Shown here piece by piece: positions 8,214 to 52,440 of a stretch of DNA of 64,000 nucleotides (position 1 is its first letter; each line of letters opens with the position of its first letter). Position numbers and translations under genes: made by a program. The notes under the pieces were generated by a model. It worked only from the letters and a program-made list of their open reading frames with translations. It had not been told where the DNA came from and did no database searches. Source of the stretch: an uncultured archaeon (GTDB taxonomy: Archaea > Aenigmatarchaeota > Aenigmatarchaeia > Aenigmatarchaeales > DAIDAN01); the NCBI GenBank assembly GCA_964545795.1, contig CAZJGC010000003.1, forward strand, positions 738 to 64,737, read 5' to 3'.

Positions 8214-9401
8214 TTAGTACAAAACCTCGCAAAGAACTTTCTTCATTTTCTCTTTGACAGTGTCGTCAACCATAAGATTTATTATTTTTGTGCGCCCATA
8301 TCTTCCTCTTGAAACATTTTTTGTGCTTATTATTCCAAACATATCAAGTTCAGATATAAGGTCTGAAACTCTTCTTTGAGTCAAAGGTTTTAACCCATAC
8401 TTCACGCAGTTTTTCTGATACTCTGAAAGAACATCTCCTGTAAGAACTTCTTTATTGTTTTCCAGCAAATCCAATATGGTCTGCATAACAATTTGGCTTT
8501 GTTTTGGCTGCGTCTTTACAATTTCAACAAATTTGTCAACATTTATTTTCTCTTCTGCTGAATCAACATGTTTTATTGTTACTTTCCTGCTTCCAGAACG
8601 CTCGGCAATCTCTCCTGCAACGCGGAGCAGATCCAAAGCCCGCCTTGCATCCCCATGCTCCTGTGCAGCAAGCGCAGCGCACTTCTCTATAACACCTTCT
8701 TCTATAACTCCTTCCGAAAAAGCAATTTCAGCCCTCTGCCTCAATATATCCTTTATCTGCGAAGCATTGTATGGAGGAAAAATAAGTTCTTCCTCAGAAA
8801 GAGATGATTTAATTCTTGTATCAAGAGTATTTACAAAACTAAGGTTGTTTGTTATTCCTATCAAACATATTTTTGCATTTTTCAATTCCTGATTTATTCT
8901 TGTCAGATTATAAATAATTTCATCTCCTGTCTTCTGCACAAGAGCATCTATTTCATCAATTATTAAAATCAAAATCTGTTTTTCAGAATCTATAACATCA
9001 AGAAATATTTTATATATCCTGTCAGTAGGAAGTCCTGTAAAAGGAACTTCTTTTCCAAGTTCTTTTAGTATTGTTGCCAATACCCTGTATTCTGTGTCTG
9101 CCACTTTTTTAAGTTTGCAGTTTATATAAACAGATTTTACTTTAAATTTCCTACTAGTTTCAATAAGTTTTTTTGTAACATAACATGAAATCAATGATTT
9201 CCCTGTTCCTGTTCTACCATAAATAAAAACATTGCTTGGTTTTGAACCAACAAGGGCAGGTGCCAAAATTTTGCCAAGTTCCTCTATCTGTTTTTCCCTA
9301 TGCAATATTTTACCAGGAACAAAACAAACAGAAAGAGCATCCCTGTCATTAAATAAACATTGAGATTGTATAAAATCATTAAATATTTTTTCCAAACTCA
9401 T
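8214..9401 (-). CDS. cdc6: Orc1/Cdc6 replication initiator
   Basis: AAA+ Walker A (GRTGTGKS) and Walker B (LILIIDEIDAL) with C-terminal winged helix; lies next to an AT-rich ORB-bearing region. Confidence 0.95.
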   Translation of the reverse strand: MSLEKIFNDFIQSQCLFNDRDALSVCFVPGKILHREKQIEELGKILAPALVGSKPSNVFIYGRTGTGKSLISCYVTKKLIETSRKFKVKSVYINCKLKKVADTEYRVLATILKELGKEVPFTGLPTDRIYKIFLDVIDSEKQILILIIDEIDALVQKTGDEIIYNLTRINQELKNAKICLIGITNNLSFVNTLDTRIKSSLSEEELIFPPYNASQIKDILRQRAEIAFSEGVIEEGVIEKCAALAAQEHGDARRALDLLRVAGEIAERSGSRKVTIKHVDSAEEKINVDKFVEIVKTQPKQSQIVMQTILDLLENNKEVLTGDVLSEYQKNCVKYGLKPLTQRRVSDLISELDMFGIISTKNVSRGRYGRTKIINLMVDDTVKEKMKKVLCEVLY

Positions 9402-9438
9402 TTTATTACAATGGAAATAAAGGTATTTATATTTTTAT

Positions 9439-9464
9439 AACCTTTTTTTCCTATGGAAATTCAC
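9439..9464 (-). promoter_or_regulatory. ORB element 1 of oriC (mini-ORB dyad, weak G-string)
   Basis: AACCTTTTTTTCCTATGGAAATTCAC; same dyad core as ORB-A and ORB-B. Confidence 0.5.
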
Positions 9465-9623
9465 TAAAATACAGTGACACACCCTTTCTTTTCCTTTAGA
9501 AACATTTTTAGAAATTAAATAAGTAATAAAAATTATTATATTAACTTTTCAGTAATAATTTTCATATAAATATAACATTGTTATATACTATATTTAATTT
9601 AAAAATAAATTATAAATAACAAA

Positions 9624-9649
9624 TTTCTATAAGAAATGATAGGGGGTCT
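9624..9649 (+). promoter_or_regulatory. ORB element 2 of oriC (degenerate dyad plus GGGGGT G-string), inverted relative to ORB-1
   Basis: TTTCTATAAGAAATGATAGGGGGTCT aligns 16/21 with the ORB-B reverse complement. Confidence 0.45.
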
Positions 9650-9667
9650 AAAATAATAATTATAAAT

Positions 9668-20240: not shown

Positions 20241-21944
20241 ATGTTATTTGAAGTTGTTGACAGGGATGCTGCAGGCAGGATTGGGAAATTAAAGATAGGA
20301 AAATATAAAATTAAAACCCCTAATATAGCGGTTGTAATAAATCCCAATAAGATGGTTGTGCCTATAAAAGAATTGAAAAAAATGGGAGTTGAAATAATAA
20401 TTACAAATTCTTATATAATAAACAATAATCCTGAAATCAGAGAGAAAGTGTTGGAAACAGGTTTGCACAAATTTTTTGGTTGGGACGGCCCAATTTACAC
20501 AGATTCTGGAACATATCAGATGTATTCGCGGAACATAAAAGACATTTCGCAAACGCAGATTCTGGAATTTCAAAGAACAATTGGTTCTGATATTATAACT
20601 CCTGTTGATGTTTTCACAACGCCGTTTGATTCAAAACCTGAAGCAAGAAAGAAATTAGAGGAGACAATAAAAAGAGTAAAAACAGCGAGAAAGACAGTGA
20701 AAACTGACCTTGTTGGGCCCATACAGGGAGGAAGTTTTATTGATTTAAGAAAAAAGGCTTGCAGAGAAATAGAAAAGGCGGGTGTTGATGTTTTTGCAGT
20801 AGGCGGCATTGTGCCATATATGGAATCTTATAAATTCACTGAATTATGCGAAACAATAATAACATGCAAGCAGTCGCTTCCTTCAAACAAGCCTGTTCAC
20901 GCTTTTGGAGCAGGGCATCCTATGGTTTTTTCGTTGCTTGTTGCATGCGGGTGCGACTTGTTTGATTCAGCTATGTATTCTTTGGCAGCAGGCAGAAATT
21001 CATATTTGACTGCAAGCGGCACAATGCATCTGGAAGATTTAGCGGAATTTCCATGTTCATGTCCTGCATGCATTAAAACAACACCATCTGAAGTAAAGAG
21101 AATGCAAAAGGAGGATAGACAGCAATTTCTTGCAAAACATAACCTATTTTCAACAATGCAAGAGTTAAAAACAGTTAGAAACGCGATTTCAAATAATAAT
21201 TTATGGGAACTTGTGCAGAGGCGTTCTTCTTCAAATCCAAGACTTTTTGAGGCATTTTTAACAATTTTAAAGAAGTATAAAGATTATTTTTTAGAGAAAG
21301 ACGTTTTCGGTAAGAAATCAGCTTTTGTATATAATAGTGAGGCATCAAAGTATAGGCCAGAGGTTTTTAAAGCAAAAGAAAGAATAAAAAATGTTAAATC
21401 AAAGAAATATTTCAAAAAAGAACCTTTTGGTAAAATACCTTACGAATTATACTTTGTCTATCCTTTTTATCAAAGCATTATACCTTTTTATAACGAGAAA
21501 AAACATGTGAAAATAGATGTTAAAGATATGATTAGAGCGGTTCTAGATTATCAATTTGGAAAAGGAACAAATGATAGAATAAAAGAATTTGAGGTAGAAA
21601 AATCAAGAAAAACAGGCATTATAAGGAGAATTTATCATAAAAACAAACTTATAGGCACTTTGAGGTCTTGGGATAATTTTCTTTTGCCAAGTATTTATGG
21701 CGCTGAATTATTAAAGATAAAAAAAGTTGTTGTAAAAGATAGGGATGCTGCCGAGTTTGTAAGCAAGGGCAGTGATTTGTTGGCAAAATTTGTTTATAAG
21801 GCAGATAAAATAATGCCTGGGGAGGAAGTTGCCGTGAAATATAAAAAGAAGATAATAGCTGTTGGCAGGGCATTGCTGAACTATAAGGAAATGAAGGAAT
21901 TTAATTATGGTGTTGCTGTAAAAGTGAGAAACCATATAAAATAA
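20241..21944 (+). CDS. tgtA: archaeosine tRNA-guanine transglycosylase (ArcTGT) with C-terminal PUA domain
   Basis: N-terminus MLFEVVDRDAAGRIGKLKIG is typical of ArcTGT; 567 aa matches TGT plus C1/C2/PUA. Confidence 0.85.
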   Translation: MLFEVVDRDAAGRIGKLKIGKYKIKTPNIAVVINPNKMVVPIKELKKMGVEIIITNSYIINNNPEIREKVLETGLHKFFGWDGPIYTDSGTYQMYSRNIKDISQTQILEFQRTIGSDIITPVDVFTTPFDSKPEARKKLEETIKRVKTARKTVKTDLVGPIQGGSFIDLRKKACREIEKAGVDVFAVGGIVPYMESYKFTELCETIITCKQSLPSNKPVHAFGAGHPMVFSLLVACGCDLFDSAMYSLAAGRNSYLTASGTMHLEDLAEFPCSCPACIKTTPSEVKRMQKEDRQQFLAKHNLFSTMQELKTVRNAISNNNLWELVQRRSSSNPRLFEAFLTILKKYKDYFLEKDVFGKKSAFVYNSEASKYRPEVFKAKERIKNVKSKKYFKKEPFGKIPYELYFVYPFYQSIIPFYNEKKHVKIDVKDMIRAVLDYQFGKGTNDRIKEFEVEKSRKTGIIRRIYHKNKLIGTLRSWDNFLLPSIYGAELLKIKKVVVKDRDAAEFVSKGSDLLAKFVYKADKIMPGEEVAVKYKKKIIAVGRALLNYKEMKEFNYGVAVKVRNHIK

Positions 21945-22068
21945 CACTGTTATATTTATTGTGAGACATAAAAATAATAGAAAAAACAAAAACATTAAAA
22001 TTTCTAAGTATTTTGGCGATTAGAGCCAAAATTTAATTTTTATAAAACTCTATTCCTAATATAGTAAT

Positions 22069-26863: not shown

Positions 26864-26931
26864 ATATTCACGTGAACTTCATGTTTTGTTCATATAGAAA
26901 TATTTAAATATTATCATGTTCACGTGAACAT
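26860..26931 (+). repeat. GTGAA repeats plus the perfect 16-bp palindrome ATGTTCACGTGAACAT (26916-26931) in the promoter/start region of the ExeA-like ATPase gene
   Basis: GTGAAT at 26860, GTGAAC at 26872, and the palindrome at 26916-26931. The track's GTG start at 26924 lies inside the palindrome. Confidence 0.8.
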
Positions 26932-26932
26932 T

Positions 26933-28036
26933 ATGATAGAAGACAAATTTGATGACTATGAAGAAAGCGTGAAACAATGGTTTCTAAAATTAAACTGGAA
27001 TGAGAACCCATTTACATTTAAAATATCTCCTGATATGTTTACTGGTTATGAAGTTCAGATAAAAGCTATTTTAAAGCATATATCAGAACAGCATAAAATA
27101 GCCATTCTTACAGGACCTACTGGCGCAGGAAAGACAACTATGCTAAAATGGACAGAAGCAAAACTGAAAGATGATAAAATAAAAATGATGTATTTGTCAA
27201 AACCCCCTTCTGACCCAAGCGAATTTGTGCGGATATTCACTAACTTTTTTGGAAGAAGCATTATTGAGAGAATTTTTATGAAAGAGGTAACAATTTTTAA
27301 TTTAAGCGATTATATAAACAGAAAACTTGGCAGCAGACATCTTGTTCTTTTGGTTGATGAAGCGCATGAAACAAACAAAAATGTTCTTGAATGGTTGCGA
27401 ATTCTTGTTGACCAAATAGAGAATGTTTCAATGGTTCTTGCAGGGTTGCCTTTGCTTGAGGATAAAATAAAAAACAAACTTGAGACACTTGACCAGAGAA
27501 TTACCACAAGAATAAAACTCACATCTCTTAATATGGCAGAAACAAGAGAACTTATTAGGAGAAGAATAGAATCTGTTGGCGGCGAAGATATAAAACCGTT
27601 TACTGAAGAGTCTGTTTCGCAGATTTTCAGAAAGACAGGAGGGTTTCCAAGAGAGGTAATAAAGTTATGCGACAAACTTGTGAATGATGCAATAGAGAAG
27701 AATGTTTATGAAATAACTGCTGATAACATTTCTGAATATAAGGAAATAAGCGAAGAACCTGTTTCCAAGTCGGTTCAACCAAAATTCTCTTTGAAGGAAC
27801 TTCCATACAAACAGAGGAAAGTATTGGAAATATTGTCTGATAGCGATTGGCTTACTCCGTCAGAGGTTGCAGAAAGACTTGGCGGTTCTTATAAGTCTGA
27901 GTATCATGCAATCCGTTCCATGAACAATATTCTTAAGAGGCTTATGAAGTGCGGATTTGTAGAAAGAGAAACAAAAGGCAAAACATTTATCTATAAACTT
28001 ACACCAAAAATTAAAACACTTTTGGTGGAGGCGTGA
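26933..28036 (+). CDS. ExeA/GspA-like AAA+ ATPase (AAA_22-type) with C-terminal winged-helix domain
   Basis: NPFTFKISPDMF N-terminal ExeA-type motif, Walker A GPTGAGKTT, Walker B LLVDEAHE, and a C-terminal wH (LTPSEVAERLGG...GFVERETKGKTFIYKLT). The likely start is the ATG at 26933 rather than the track GTG at 26924. Confidence 0.55.
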   Translation: MIEDKFDDYEESVKQWFLKLNWNENPFTFKISPDMFTGYEVQIKAILKHISEQHKIAILTGPTGAGKTTMLKWTEAKLKDDKIKMMYLSKPPSDPSEFVRIFTNFFGRSIIERIFMKEVTIFNLSDYINRKLGSRHLVLLVDEAHETNKNVLEWLRILVDQIENVSMVLAGLPLLEDKIKNKLETLDQRITTRIKLTSLNMAETRELIRRRIESVGGEDIKPFTEESVSQIFRKTGGFPREVIKLCDKLVNDAIEKNVYEITADNISEYKEISEEPVSKSVQPKFSLKELPYKQRKVLEILSDSDWLTPSEVAERLGGSYKSEYHAIRSMNNILKRLMKCGFVERETKGKTFIYKLTPKIKTLLVEA

Positions 28037-29066: not shown

Positions 29067-30038
29067 CTAAGGGTCTCTTATTCCTTCCGGTTCAACTGCA
29101 AACACAGCTTCGCCTTCAGGCAGATAAGGCGAGTCTATAAGCCTTGCTATTCTTGTGCTTCCTTTGCTTTTTCTGAGGTAAACCCTGAATGTTGCCTGAT
29201 GCCCTACAATATGCCCCCCTATAGGAACTGTCGGGTCTCCGAAGAGCATGTCAGGTTTTGACATTACCTGGTTTGTAACATAAACTGCTATGTTGTAAAC
29301 ATCAGCAAGCCTTTGCAGTGTATGCAAATGCCTGTTTAGTTTTTGCTGTCTTGTTGCAAGTTCGCCTCTGCCTGAAAAATCAGACCTGAAATGAGACATC
29401 AAACTATCCACAACAATAATTTTTATGTTTTTTTCTTTTATTAAGTCGGAAGCTTTTTCTGCAAGCACAACTTGATGGTCGGAGTTGTAAGCCCTTGCAA
29501 CATAAATATTTTCCAGAACAGTGTCAGGGTCAAGATTTAAGCCTTCTGCTATTTGCCTTATTCTCTCAGGTCTGAATGTGTTTTCAGTGTCTATTATTAA
29601 TGCAGAACCTTCAAGCCCTCCCTGTTCTTTAGGGAGTTGCGCAGTTACAAGCAATTGAAAACCAACCTGCGACTTTCCTGAGCCGAATGCTCCATAGAAT
29701 TCTGTTATTGCCTGAGTTTCTATTCCTCCTCCAAGAAGTTCATCAAGATTTTTGCTGCCTGTTGTAATTTTTGTAATCTGTTTTCTTTTTTCAAAAACCT
29801 TTGCAGCGCTCTCATATCCCATATCAAGGGCGCTTCTTGATGCTTCAATAATCTTTTTTGCAGTAGCTTCTCCTATGTCTGCTGCATCTGCAAGTTCTGA
29901 TGGTGATGCTGCTGCTATTGCCATAAAGTCAATATAACCTGCTTCTTTAAGTTTCTCAGCTGTTTTTTCGCCGACTCCCGGCAGGTCAGATATTGTTTCC
30001 ATGCTTCTTCTTTTTTCAATTTCTTCATCAACGCTCAT
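29067..30038 (-). CDS. radA: RadA recombinase
   Basis: N-terminal HhH ([12 protein letters not shown]), Walker [10 protein letters not shown], Walker B KIIVVDS. Confidence 0.95.
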
Positions 30039-30041
30039 TAC

Positions 30042-30983
30042 TTACACCCCTTTTAGTTGTTCAATAATCTTTTTTGATTCATATACAGGATCTGCTTTTT
30101 TGAAGTCATTTATTATAATTTCGTTTCTTTCAAACATCTGATTTCTTCTTACGTTGCCTGTGAATATAAATTCTGTTCCTAATATGTCTGTTAATGAAGG
30201 CTTGGATGAAGTCAATTCTTCTGCTTTAAAGCCTATAAATTTTTCTGCAATGTCTCTAAAGAATACAGCCCGCATATTTCCATATCCGTCGTCTATGACA
30301 GAAGAAGCAACCACTGTTTTTTTAGGTTCAACTTCTCCATGTTCAGTGCATTTCTTTTCTTTTATTGATTTGTTGCATTGTGGGCATACATCATAAAAAA
30401 CAGGTTCAAACATCTGAAGCACTGCCGCGCGTATTGTGCATGAACTTCCGTGCTTTAATTCTGATATATTTGTTTCAATAATTTTTTCTTCAAATTTCAC
30501 AGGCTCTTCATCAACCTGTTTTATTTTTCCATCTTTGCCAAGCCTTATTTCCACTCCACTCATTTTGTCTTCTCTTGTATATGCTCCGCTTATTTCAATA
30601 ACACTATTTTCTTTTATGTCTTTTGCAAGTTCAATCTGCTCGTCCCATAAAGACATTCTTATTTCTCCTGTTTTGTCAGCAAGAAAGAGGTTTAATACTT
30701 TTCCTTCTTTTCCATCTCTTTCAAAAGTTCTTAATGGCGAAATTTTTGAGACAGTAGCAGTTAGCGTAAGCGCTCTTATTCCAGGTATTATGTTTTTTAT
30801 TTCTATTTTATGATCTGTTTTTTCTATTAGATTCAAACCCAGTTCTTTTGCAACAATATATGCTGCGCCTTCTTTTGATACAAGATTTGAAAGTTCTGTT
30901 TGTTTGTCAAGAATTTTTTTTGCAATTTCATCTTCGTTGTATCCAGCTTCAACAATTTTTTTCAAAACAGATTCATAGGACAT
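30042..30983 (-). CDS. rpa: replication protein A-like single-stranded DNA-binding protein (OB folds plus zinc ribbon)
   Basis: GKVLNLFLADKTGEIRMSLWDEQ is a canonical RPA OB motif. Zinc ribbon CPQCN...CTEHG. The start was moved to MSYESVL because the track extends 18 codons upstream. Confidence 0.75.
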   Translation of the reverse strand: MSYESVLKKIVEAGYNEDEIAKKILDKQTELSNLVSKEGAAYIVAKELGLNLIEKTDHKIEIKNIIPGIRALTLTATVSKISPLRTFERDGKEGKVLNLFLADKTGEIRMSLWDEQIELAKDIKENSVIEISGAYTREDKMSGVEIRLGKDGKIKQVDEEPVKFEEKIIETNISELKHGSSCTIRAAVLQMFEPVFYDVCPQCNKSIKEKKCTEHGEVEPKKTVVASSVIDDGYGNMRAVFFRDIAEKFIGFKAEELTSSKPSLTDILGTEFIFTGNVRRNQMFERNEIIINDFKKADPVYESKKIIEQLKGV

Positions 30984-31063
30984 TAAAACACCGATGCAGT
31001 TTATCTGCAAACACTTCCTCTTTAGTCTAATAATCAATGTTCAGTTATTTATAGTTTTGTATA

Positions 31064-31267
31064 TTACAATATTTTTTTCTTTGCTTCTTTGACGTCTGAC
31101 AGCAACACAGTTTTTCTGTTGTTCTTTTTTGCTATTGCTGCAGATTCTGCTGCAATGTCTGCTATTACTTCTTCAAGGAATTGCGTAAATTCTATTGCAG
31201 CCGAATTGCTTACTCTAAGCCCATGCTTCATCAGAAATTTTTTTATCGGCGCCAATGGTAAGTCCAT
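31064..31267 (-). CDS. archaeal histone (HMf family)
   Basis: 67 aa with the histone-fold pattern PLAPIKKFLMKHGLRVSNSAAIEFTQFLEEV...RKTVLLSDVKEA. Confidence 0.85.
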   Translation of the reverse strand: MDLPLAPIKKFLMKHGLRVSNSAAIEFTQFLEEVIADIAAESAAIAKKNNRKTVLLSDVKEAKKKIL

Positions 31268-31333
31268 GCATGAATATTAAATGGCTGATTTAAATGTTTT
31301 TGCATGCTCAAACAACAATAGTGCAACAGCAAT

Positions 31334-31935
31334 GTGAGAGTTAGCGCTTGAATGCTAACTTTCTTATATTCTCACAAAATGTATTTTTTAACTTTTGATA
31401 AAAACATTTAGACTAACGTAAAATTCAATACTTGCAAAATTATCTGTTCAATTAAACTCTAACAATGCATTAATCCTAACATTTCTTACAATATGTTGTT
31501 TCAGTGGATGTAAAGGCAAACTCTCACATTTCAATTTACTTTTTATGTTTCCGGATAATTTTTATGAAGGAATCACTCACAATAAGTATGTCTAACACTT
31601 AATAACATAGGTTAATCATTTGGGTGAAGTCTCACTTTTCTCTTGCAGCAGAATTATAACAATGTAATATAACATTGTTATTATATGTTGATAATGATTA
31701 ACTCTCACTTTGTTAATTCTATGGAAAAATAATCTGAAATATGTCAAATAACAATATCAATTATCTTTAATCTCACTTTATGCAGTGCAGATTTTAGTTT
31801 AAGGCCTTTCTTTGGTTATGTTAACCCTCTCTTAATGGAAAAATAACGAAATTATTTGCAGAAATCTTCAAAACTCTTGAAAAATGCGCGAATCCTGTTT
31901 TCTTTGCAAAATGCATTAACTCTCACTTTTAATTT
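31334..31935 (+). repeat. dispersed 14-nt motif TTAACTCTCACTTT, about 7 copies and 1 inverted, within an 860-bp gene-free region
   Basis: Exact copies at 31698 and 31916. Variants at 31368, 31518, 31627, 31768 and 31821. Inverted copy at 31334. Hairpins at 31340-31361 and 31655-31680. Confidence 0.7.
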
Positions 31936-32128
31936 TGCGTGGGTTGTTTTATAAAATATATATTATTATTTATATTTTAAGAAATATTTGTAATATAATA
32001 TTTATAATAAAATATATCTTGCAGGATATTTAATAAAAAACATATGACATAAAAAATATATTTTAAAACATAAATAAGAAAACACTAATTTTAAATAGGG
32101 GTAAAGATAATTATGAATAGGTGTTAGT

Positions 32129-32491
32129 GTGAAGAAAGATAATGAAAAGAAAAATATAATTGAAAAAATATTCTTGCATAGCAAACCTGTGCAGATGTTG
32201 ATAAGTCTTAAGAACGAAAGGTCAAAATATACAACGCAGGTTTCAAAAGAAGTTGACTGCACGTATTCTCACACAGTAAAAATTTTGAATATGTTTAAGA
32301 AATTAGGTCTTGTTTCTTTCAGCAAAAAAGGCAGAATAAAGAATGTAAAACTTACAGAGGAAGGGGAAGAGATAGCGCATGAGTTTGAAGGCATTTCAAA
32401 GAAGCTTGCCAGAATTGCTTCGCAACTAAAGGATGATGTTCTTCCCAAGAAGGAAAGCAAAGAAAAATCTAAAGGGTCAAATAAAAAGTAA
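32129..32491 (+). CDS. winged-helix DNA-binding protein (MarR/TrmB-like) with a basic C-terminal tail
   Basis: wH segment QVSKEVDCTYSHTVKILNMFKKLGLVSF. Confidence 0.45.
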   Translation: MKKDNEKKNIIEKIFLHSKPVQMLISLKNERSKYTTQVSKEVDCTYSHTVKILNMFKKLGLVSFSKKGRIKNVKLTEEGEEIAHEFEGISKKLARIASQLKDDVLPKKESKEKSKGSNKK

Positions 32492-32626
32492 CTACTGCTT
32501 TCTTGATATTCTTTTATCAAATCACCAAGGTTATTTGCTCAGAGTGGGTTTTATAAACACCACTTTTATATATGAGTTTTGCCTAAATAAATTTGTTGGG
32601 CTGTTTTAAAAGTAACTATATTTTAG

Positions 32627-32989
32627 GTGAAAAATATGGAAACATTAATGAAATACCTCTATGGCAACCATCCAAAAAGCAAAAAAATAAAGGAACTTGG
32701 CAGAAAAACCCTGGGTATTCTTGTTAAAAACGGGCAAATAGAGCATCTGGAACTGGCTAAGCAGATTGGCGTTAAATTTGAGAAATGGAAAGGTTATGAG
32801 AAGCCTGTCAAAACTTTTTATTCTGTTGTTAATCCGTTAAAAGAGATGCAATTAATAGAATCTATTAAGAGAAAAGAGGGAAAAAAGTTCAAAACAATAT
32901 ATGTTTATACGCCTGACAAATTTGCTGCGAACATGAAAAATTTTGTGAAAATGACAATTGAATTTCTAGAGACAATGAAAGCCAAATAA
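32627..32989 (+). CDS. hypothetical protein, possible wH regulator
   Basis: 120 aa; no strong motif. Confidence 0.35.
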   Translation: MKNMETLMKYLYGNHPKSKKIKELGRKTLGILVKNGQIEHLELAKQIGVKFEKWKGYEKPVKTFYSVVNPLKEMQLIESIKRKEGKKFKTIYVYTPDKFAANMKNFVKMTIEFLETMKAK

Positions 32990-33258
32990 ATTAAGGTTGT
33001 TTTTAACTAAATATAGATTCTATTAGATAAATTTTATAATATATTTCCTTTTATATATTATGTATTATATTTATTAATAAATATAATTTATAATATATCT
33101 AATATAATAGGTATATTAAATAATATATTTTATAAAATATAATAAAAATGGAAAAAGTCACACAAAAAAAGTGAGAGTTCATGGGATTTGTATAGGAAAA
33201 GATAGAAAAATTGGCGAAATACTCGCAAAAATGGCAAAATCTGACAAAATTGCTAAAA

Positions 33259-33411
33259 TTAGAAGAATATTTTTTTCTCTTTTCTTTTTGCTGATTTAAG
33301 AGAAGTGTGGCATTTCTTGCATTTAAGTATTCTTTCTTTTCCAATTTTTATGTAACCTATGTTTTTGTTGGTTAATTTTGCGTTGCAGATATCGCATCTA
33401 AGATTAACCAT
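33259..33411 (-). CDS. small Cys4 zinc-ribbon protein with a basic tail (50 aa); not in the ORF track
   Basis: Manual translation gives MVNLRCDICNAKLTNKNIGYIKIGKERILKCKKCHTSLKSAKRKEKKIFF. The Cys spacing is C-x2-C-x21-C-x2-C. Confidence 0.3.
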   Translation of the reverse strand: MVNLRCDICNAKLTNKNIGYIKIGKERILKCKKCHTSLKSAKRKEKKIFF

Positions 33412-52352: not shown

Positions 52353-52440
52353 TGGCGCCTGGGACAGGACTCGAACCTGCGACCACCTGGTTTCTGTATA
52401 AATTAACAGCCAGGTGCTCTACCTGCTGAGCTACCCAGGC
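52353..52440 (-). tRNA. tRNA-Asn (anticodon GUU) with a 12-nt canonical intron at 37/38; CCA is encoded
   Basis: Acceptor GCCUGGG/CCCAGGC, D-arm GCUC-AGCAGGUA-GAGC, anticodon stem CCUGG/CCAGG, anticodon GUU at 52405-52407, intron at 52392-52403, T-loop UUCGAGU. Confidence 0.85.

Follow-up and report, generated by a model that had tools for sequence, protein, structure and literature searches.

Within a stretch of 64,000 nucleotides from an uncultured archaeon of the Aenigmatarchaeota (GenBank contig CAZJGC010000003.1, positions 738 to 64,737; hereafter the window), a gene-free spacer of 861 bp (31268..32128) lies between an archaeal histone gene on the - strand and, on the + strand, the gene of a small winged helix-turn-helix protein, wHTH1. 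The spacer was found to contain about ten copies of a repeated motif of 12-14 nt with the consensus (C)AA(C/T)TCTCAC(T/A)TT (14-mer form TTAACTCTCACTTT), and this motif tracked wHTH1 and its partner gene wHTH2 in about 80 loci across the phylum, being nearly absent from the flanking DNA. We consider the array to be a group of sites at which the neighboring winged-helix protein would bind, with a probability of roughly 0.55; this reading, which had been among those offered in a preliminary description of the DNA, fits the comparison across relatives, and both the protein that would bind and the effect of its binding are predicted from the sequences.

Linkage of the motif to the wHTH1-wHTH2 cassette

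The related loci compared here were 80 of 300 confirmed metagenomic loci recovered with a profile of 42 wHTH1 sequences; four syntenic loci (L004, L005, L008, and L009) had been fetched first via wHTH1 homologues. In 50 of 56 loci, the - strand carried an exact AACTCTCAC at +1000 to +1250, counted from the start of wHTH1; the sequence turned up 31 times at -750 to 0 (19 on the + strand and 12 on the - strand), and it was nearly absent elsewhere within ±5 kb of the related loci. In addition, CTCAC on the + strand was 5.2-fold enriched at -1300 to -150, and pairs of the form CTCAC-N3..25-GTGAG were confined to the DNA adjoining the cassette. Such linkage to the cassette, together with depletion elsewhere in the related loci, is the behavior expected of an operator cluster, namely enrichment beside the gene of an orthologous factor.

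The upstream region of the relatives displayed a recurrent architecture. Many loci carry CTCAC-N3..6-GTGAG pairs at about -285, CTCAC-N9..20-GTGAGACT elements are located at about -230/-206, and a tract of ~200 bp upstream of wHTH1 is packed with ATATAT (314 matches in 75 loci in the -250 to 0 bin versus ~0.15 per locus elsewhere). The TATA box TTTAAATA, which is conserved, and the ribosome-binding site AGGTGA precede the wHTH1 start codon by ~40 nt, and 3' of this promoter the two genes are followed by a second ATATAT-rich tract and then by an invariant CGAACTCTCACATTTG with further arms. The window copy at 31916, with its partner GTGGG at 31939, aligned to the conserved site of the relatives at about -210, which is of the CTCAC-N9..20-GTGAGACT type; judged by this alignment, it is the conserved proximal site.

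On the other side of the cassette, a conserved non-coding element of ~145 nt stands directly after wHTH2 (33088..33231, - strand), with the core TGAACTCTCACTTT at 33168-33181. In all four syntenic genomes, GAACTCTCAC(T/A)TT was found on the - strand soon after wHTH2, the copy at 33168-33181 being that of the window. A profile built with the window's own sequence excluded matched the element of the window with E = 2.8e-9; the element was found in 54 loci, and an invariant CGAACTCTCACATTTG-type core was located ~100-200 bp after wHTH2 in 47 of 50. Its + strand often reads GTGAGAGTTC-GTGAGAAAAC-GTGAAGATTT, with GTGAGA repeats whose 10-bp phasing places them on the same side of the helix (22 and 15 loci out of 50). 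Where a gene has been inserted between wHTH1 and wHTH2 (L051 and L029), the downstream element travels with wHTH2. The same profile, representing the other genomes, matched in inverted orientation a composite element of the spacer consisting of the motif and an ATATAT-rich tract (31870..32005, + strand; nhmmer E = 4.1e-6, profile positions 14-162). Strict terminal inverted repeats formed by the upstream and downstream composites were also considered; the window showed such a match, but only 7 of 78 other loci did so at E <= 1e-3, and generality is not claimed.

Some further observations were made around the cassette. An extra gene encoding ~115-140 amino acids with no Pfam match is situated between wHTH1 and wHTH2, or replaces wHTH2, in L024, L030, L051, and L063, and its insertion point is the short spacer that holds a motif copy in other loci. 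At 33259-33411 (- strand), a 50-residue open reading frame (ORF) contains two CxxC pairs, in the manner of a zinc ribbon, and is annotated as a gene in a JGI contig; its 3' end abuts the downstream element. A run of GTGAA repeats in L009 (5001-5060; TTCACGCGTGAAGATGTGAACAAAACGTGAAGGAAACGTGAAC), at the distal end of a 1-kb gap, is similar to the GTGAAG repeats found in the downstream element.

Organization of the spacer

The gap of 861 bp is the largest of the window, as had been stated in the preliminary description; the runner-up measures 266 bp and the median is 43 bp (gaps between ORFs of at least 60 amino acids). No ORF starting within 31268-32128 is longer than 43 amino acids, each frame contains 19-27 stop codons, and the GC content is 25.4% versus 34.2% window-wide. 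Over 12 kb around the spacer, the JGI metagenome contig Ga0256751_1000006 differed by a single base, and 30515-32713 was matched exactly by the Logan assembly of SRR9849955. Since these two assemblies agree, an artefact of one assembly pipeline is ruled out for the spacer.

Counted window-wide, the 14-mer TTAACTCTCACTTT was at the level of chance (18 observed versus 14.8 expected). Exact CTCAC on the + strand, meanwhile, was as frequent in the 861-bp spacer (seven occurrences) as in the remaining 63 kb together (also seven; Poisson P ~2e-9), and AACTCTCAC was found on the + strand of the window only at 31519, 31700, and 31918. A scattering of the motif at similar density, named in advance as the observation that would speak against an array, was not seen within the window, where clustering in the spacer is strong.

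With up to three mismatches allowed, the 14-mer was located on the + strand at 31517, 31625, 31698 (exact), 31766, 31821, and 31916 (exact), with one match on the - strand of the spacer, at 31331; weaker copies at 31365, 31453, 31470, and 31570, all on the + strand, were read by eye. The earlier statement that the motif keeps mostly to one orientation, with one inverted copy, was in good agreement with this distribution. The proximal site (31916..31943, + strand) comprises the exact copy at 31916-31929 and a degenerate inverted arm GTGGG at 31939-31943. With increasing distance from wHTH1, it is succeeded on the + strand by the decayed copy TTAACCCTCTCTTA, which has lost the CTCAC core and is followed at once by copy 2 of ATGGAAAAATAA (31835-31846; 31821..31846 in all), by TTTAATCTCACTTT (31766..31779), by the exact copy TTAACTCTCACTTT (31698..31711, repeat family D11), by TGAAGTCTCACTTT (31625..31638), by the weak copy GAATCACTCACAAT, of which only the CTCAC core is exact (31570..31583), by CAAACTCTCACATT (31517..31530), by two adjoining decayed copies, TAAACTCTAACAAT and TTAATCCTAACATT, with four mismatches each (31453..31483), and by the weak copy TATATTCTCACAAA (31365..31378), whose exact CTCAC core stands at -758 from the wHTH1 start. 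The inverted copy CTAACTCTCACATT (31331..31344, - strand; two mismatches) lies 64-77 nt ahead of the start codon of the histone gene, and the core of the profile matched at 31346-31331.

The spacings between copies (86, 66, 53, 55, 73, 68, 55, and 95 bp) are irregular, as described before, and range from 53 to 95 bp. The core shared by the copies is at most 15 nt and its period is irregular, and the identical 24-40-nt repeats at a constant period that define clustered regularly interspaced short palindromic repeats (CRISPR) were not observed, so that the earlier judgment of a non-CRISPR array stands. The number of mismatches grows with distance from wHTH1, from none at 31916 and 31698 to 3-6 at 31365-31583. 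Moreover, pairs of copies share longer decayed units (repeat families D2, D5, D6, and D14). The copies at 31453..31483 (families D6 and D9) match the copy at 31910-31930 at 81%, and copy 1 of ATGGAAAAATAA (31721..31732, + strand) belongs with 31698-31711 to family D14, both ATGGAAAAATAA copies being parts of one duplicated unit of ~40 nt (31698-31740 and 31821-31852).

The AT-rich tract of the spacer (31945..32128, + strand; 86% A+T) contains repeated AAATATAT boxes and ends in the wHTH1 promoter, with the TATA box TTTAAATA at 32090-32097 and the ribosome-binding site AGGTG at 32119-32123 (both on the + strand). Within it, 31950-32015 is 97% A+T, which bears out the nearly pure A/T run noticed previously. 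Two inverted repeats that had been reported were also present, each one nucleotide away from the position first given. The repeat AGTTAGC-N8-GCTAACT (31339..31360), with arms of 7 bp, overlaps the inverted motif copy and appeared in both the minimum-free-energy and the centroid folds. The other is the perfect 10-bp repeat ATAACAATGT-AATATA-ACATTGTTAT (31656..31681), which contains the near-palindromic unit ATAACATTGTTAT twice; this unit also occurs at 9572-9584, in the spacer next to cdc6, and at 21941-21953, at the end of a tRNA-guanine transglycosylase gene. In the window, ATAACATTGTTAT gave seven strand-matches versus 0.28 expected, and related AACAT(A/T)TGTT palindromes were enriched in the relatives as well, namely in the AT-rich tracts next to the cassette. 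Palindromes of the ATAACATTGTTAT type may be sites of a second DNA-binding protein.

The genes adjoining the spacer on the - strand encode RadA (29067-30038), an RPA-like protein with an oligonucleotide/oligosaccharide-binding fold (30042-31037), and the archaeal histone (31064..31267; CBFD_NFYB_HMF match, E = 2.2e-10). A putative TATA-like box of the histone gene, ATTTAAAT, was read by eye at 31288-31295 (- strand). The only GTDB genomes matching the RPA protein were two distant Thermoplasmatota, and no close relative was found among the GTDB species representatives.

Properties of the candidate binding protein

The candidate binder of the motif, wHTH1 (32129..32491, + strand), is a winged-helix protein of 120 amino acids whose C-terminal part comprises a long helix and a tail rich in Lys, and its conserved partner wHTH2 (32627..32989, + strand) is an extended winged-helix protein of 120 amino acids. 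The named homologues of wHTH1 come from metagenome-assembled genomes of Aenigmarchaeota/Aenigmatarchaeota. Across 42 aligned sequences, its identity is 54-79%, and 33 columns are invariant, including VDCTYSHTVK in the predicted recognition helix. This helix (VDCTYSHTVKVL) and the core of the motif are both invariant. Such joint invariance of a reading helix and of the locus-specific motif next to its gene would be expected of a cognate pair, which wHTH1 and the motif may form.

The AlphaFold model of wHTH1 (predicted local distance difference test score, pLDDT, 81) consists of a winged helix, then a long helix, and last the Lys-rich tail, which is disordered. Its structural matches included MarR-family repressors, AF1382, AspA (which binds the centromere of pNOB8), and the chromatin protein Sso10a-2; MepR, ZitR, AdcR, ST1710, and BldR were among the proteins matched. 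In the Foldseek search, 4rs8_A was matched with E = 3.8e-5 and 5k5q with E ~2-4e-4, MarR-family proteins and AF1382 scoring equally well; in the comparison with AspA, the target-normalised TM-scores for 4rs8 and 5k5q were 0.71-0.77, and the sequence-profile match was weak (E = 0.16-0.42). wHTH1 fell below the threshold of the TrmB Pfam model. The model of wHTH2 (pLDDT 88.7) showed an extended winged helix, with weak PDB matches to the winged-helix domain of TFE-alpha/TFIIE-alpha and to PadR proteins, and wHTH2 matched no Pfam family. The searchable literature contained nothing pertinent on the wHTH1/wHTH2 protein family, the motif, AF1382, or DPANN origins.

Predicted role of the array

We propose that the spacer represents an enlarged upstream control region of the wHTH1-wHTH2 cassette, which is conserved across Aenigmarchaeota-type DPANN archaea. 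The motif would be a protein recognition sequence, most likely read by wHTH1 as a small dimeric protein of the AF1382/AspA/Sso10a/MarR type, possibly together with wHTH2. In relatives, the motif brackets the cassette on both flanks, and the occupied proximal inverted sites and the downstream cluster would together set the expression of their own operon. In this genome, the bound protein might also affect the divergent histone gene through the inverted copy ahead of its start codon, and it may build a larger nucleoprotein complex that bridges both flanks. The other nine or so copies would be local duplications of the proximal unit, an origin indicated by the decayed units that copies share and by the decay that rises with distance from the gene, located in a spacer whose place is taken in some relatives by a gene for a protein of 243-257 amino acids. 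These extra copies are probably partly decayed sites of low affinity.

Several features weigh against this proposal. The evidence for wHTH1 as the reader, as opposed to wHTH2 or an unlinked factor, consists of adjacency and co-conservation. The motif is asymmetric, and direct repeats with such irregular spacing and no helical phasing would be unusual for a dimeric winged-helix protein; the inverted pairs of the relatives also vary in their spacing, from 3 to ~20 bp. In most relatives the control region measures no more than ~290 bp, so that the distal copies may be dispensable. These copies are progressively decayed, and one duplicated unit has kept the flanking ATGGAAAAATAA better than the core. 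Their strict orientation (19 on the + strand and none on the - strand at -750 to -250) is not accounted for by the proposal, and the - strand of 31300-31950 gives a somewhat better fold than shuffled sequence, as detailed below.

Alternative explanations

The gene order radA-rpa-histone-X-wHTH1-wHTH2 is kept in the four syntenic loci, and X varies: a protein of 243-257 amino acids without Pfam match is encoded there in L005 (5018-5749), L006 (3418-4149), and L008 (4572-5345), L009 has an ORF of 83 amino acids and then a 1-kb gap, and the window has the 861-bp gap. The spacer might accordingly have been left by gene loss, with only the proximal site at 31916 and the downstream element functional and the remaining copies being neutral, decaying duplications. 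Such debris would agree with the degradation of the copies away from the gene, the longer decayed units shared in pairs, the loss of the CTCAC core at 31821, the presence of a gene at this position in three relatives, and the sufficiency of ~290 bp upstream in most of them. However, same-strand arrays with exact cores are found again in deeply diverged lineages, between whose spacers no alignment is possible (six copies in L009, four in L012, six in L025/L026, and five in L052, the window having the most), and neutral decay alone would not have preserved them; furthermore, 860 bp of junk would be unusual where the median intergenic gap is so short. We regard this explanation, the chief rival of our proposal, as unlikely, although one to be reckoned with. 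The same comparison raises the question, already put in the preliminary description, of whether the spacer derives, through frameshifting and degradation, from the gene that L005, L006, and L008 hold in the same place; the short ORF of L009, with the gap behind it, would also speak for this. With a word size of 2 and no low-complexity masking, tblastn of the relatives' proteins against the spacer gave a best E of 2.5, so no remnant was detectable, and tblastn of the whole window for homologues of these proteins returned nothing convincing. Considering also the stop codons in every frame and a GC content 9 points under the window mean, signals of coding are absent, and a remnant is extremely improbable. 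Alternatively, the spacer could be transcribed into one or more non-coding RNAs, in which the motif would act, for example, as a protein- or RNA-binding module or by pairing over a long range with the complementary downstream copy. The strict orientation of the distal copies, the complementarity of the upstream + strand copies to the + strand of the downstream element, the retention of pairing in the proximal CTCAC/GTGGG pair of the window only as G-U on the + strand, and the fold of the - strand (z = -2.69 for 31300-31950; 20 shuffles) are in its favor. The excess stability on the - strand is a weak point for transcription and might stem from G-U pairs formed by the motif's G-rich complement. 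Against it, the + strand folded with z = -0.65. The Rfam scan of the window identified only a tRNA (52356-52440) at the gathering score; in the spacer region, the best matches were small nucleolar RNA models far below threshold (14.7-18.6 bits versus 44-75), and a C/D-box small RNA considered at 31683-31744 was rejected with degenerate boxes and 18.6 bits versus a threshold of 50. For alignments of 47 and of 34 copies of the conserved element, RNAalifold predicted no base pair on either strand, and no covariation between the motif arms was detected. In two helices inspected for compensatory changes, 75% and 64% of the cells could pair, which equals the shuffled mean, with one and no double-sided change, respectively, and one arm was invariant and the other drifting. 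Because compensatory changes are missing and pairing does not exceed the shuffled level, the arms behave like independent copies of one sequence motif and unlike a base-paired stem. In addition, since the promoter of wHTH1, itself conserved, stands ~40 nt ahead of the start codon, the operon mRNA would exclude the array. Signals of RNA structure are absent, and the untranslated RNA with repeated modules suggested earlier is improbable.

A second replication origin of the iteron type had been suggested as well; by analogy with WhiP at Sulfolobus oriC3, the motif would be the initiator repeat (iteron-like, or like the mini-form of the origin recognition box, ORB), the AT-rich tract the unwinding element, and one of the winged-helix proteins a dedicated initiator. 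The asymmetric motif in oriented arrays beside a 97% A+T tract, its confinement to one locus that encodes a highly conserved DNA-binding protein, the facing orientation of upstream and downstream copies, and the proximity of rpa and radA would suit such a role. In contrast, no consistent GC-skew switch was found: a negative left and positive right flank was seen in only 32% of 31 loci, 10-kb flanks making this a weak test. The cumulative-skew minimum of the window is at the Cdc6-linked spacer 9402-9667, 22 kb away, and in archaea known to have multiple origins these are hundreds of kb apart. No Orc1/Cdc6 or Rep gene adjoins the array, no Cdt1/WhiP or Orc winged-helix domain appeared among the top 50 fold matches of wHTH1 and wHTH2, and the spacing is irregular. 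The label of mini-ORB-like proved unfounded, as the heptamer ATGGAAA behind it is common (49 occurrences in the window) and is not enriched at the locus in relatives. The ATGGAAAAATAA sequence, said to occur twice in the spacer and once at 9412, was indeed present in two copies, at 31721 and 31835 rather than at 31719 and 31831, whereas 9412 reads ATGGAAATAAAG; within one mismatch, ATGGAAAAATAA had no match at 9412 and was absent from the Cdc6 spacer. As no good signal of an origin was found, we judge a second origin at the spacer very unlikely, and a false lead is removed. A more speculative view is that the cassette and its flanking composites (the CTCAC motif, AACATATGTT-type palindromes, and ATATAT tracts) form a unique nucleoprotein landmark on each chromosome, universal in Aenigmarchaeota, rather than ordinary regulatory DNA. 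It could be a centromere-like segregation site as with AspA/SegB, or an accessory site of replication or chromosome organization, for which the array would be an expanded platform of nucleation and spreading. We hold this to be doubtful, yet worth entertaining.

Two further loci of the window concern replication. The 266-bp AT-rich spacer 9402-9667, beside cdc6 (8214-9401), coincides with the cumulative GC-skew minimum, carries two ATGGAAA repeats, and is likely the replication origin. At 26924-28036 (+ strand), a protein of 370 amino acids combines an AAA_22/ATPase_2 domain with a C-terminal winged helix (Penicillinase_R-like), an Orc1/Cdc6-like architecture, and its synteny is kept ~4 kb upstream in L004, L005, and L008. 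As an Orc1 paralogue it was rejected: BLASTP against the Cdc6 of the window gave E = 0.006 over only 56 residues, and no PDB sequence match was obtained.

Implications

DPANN archaea possess tiny genomes and few regulators, and their cis-regulatory DNA is almost wholly without experimental tests. The present analysis defines a candidate protein-DNA pair, in which a strongly conserved protein, wHTH1, is coupled with an invariant motif of ~12 nt confined to its own locus in ~80 genomes. Should the sites be ordinary operators, the pair would provide a clean case of deeply conserved autoregulation; should they be a chromosomal landmark, it would bear on chromosome segregation and organization in uncultured archaea and be considerably more interesting.

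Comparison with known systems

In the tests made here, the array did not qualify as an ORB-type or iteron origin, a CRISPR array, an Rfam RNA, or a pseudogene, each judged by its defining features. Like archaeal oriC with ORB or mini-ORB elements, it has asymmetric, oriented repeats that face each other beside very AT-rich DNA; however, the motif AACTCTCACTTT is unrelated to the ORB core as judged against its consensus sequence, neither orc1/cdc6 nor whiP adjoins it, the repeats flank genes instead of a single unwinding element, and no consistent skew switch was seen. With plasmid iterons, it shares one short motif directly repeated on one strand by AT-rich DNA and the gene of a DNA-binding protein. 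Iterons are typically 17-22 bp and regularly spaced at ~22 bp, whereas here 12-15 nt are shared at 53-95 bp, and there is no Rep-family protein and no link to plasmids or phages. The locus showed no similarity to plasmids or phages, and a scan of viral contigs for a 16-mer yielded four matches, at the level of chance, none of them with a winged-helix gene.

Among winged-helix systems, TrmB-family regulators of Thermococcales bind the glycolytic motif TATCAC-N5-GTGATA, which serves a dispersed regulon of many promoters. The likeness is that of an archaeal winged-helix regulator reading ...TCAC-N-GTGA..., binding in the present case being predicted; unlike the TrmB motif, the present one is confined to one locus, and wHTH1 misses the TrmB Pfam model. 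AspA of the Sulfolobus plasmid pNOB8 (aspA-parB-parA) resembles the model of wHTH1, which matches MarR-family proteins and AF1382 equally well, in having a winged helix with a C-terminal helix; a locus-specific site likewise lies upstream of its own gene, and it reportedly nucleates at a palindrome and then spreads along the DNA. The present locus differs from that centromere in being chromosomal and syntenic and in having many dispersed half-sites on both flanks, and the genes called over ±6 kb in L004, L005, L008, and L009 included none of the ParA/CbiA or ParB type.

The autoregulated repressors of the MarR and PadR families offer a small dimeric winged-helix protein and inverted sites by its own promoter, comparable to the CTCAC-N3..6-GTGAG pairs at about -285 in many relatives. 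They differ in several respects: here the sites are located 200-800 bp upstream of the promoter and downstream of the operon, overlapping the TATA box or start in few loci, the direct half-sites are irregularly spaced, no gene of a ligand-binding or efflux partner is present, and the motif is invariant across a phylum-level group. Taken together, with the binding itself predicted, the system would work most like an autoregulated operator cluster of the MarR/PadR type.

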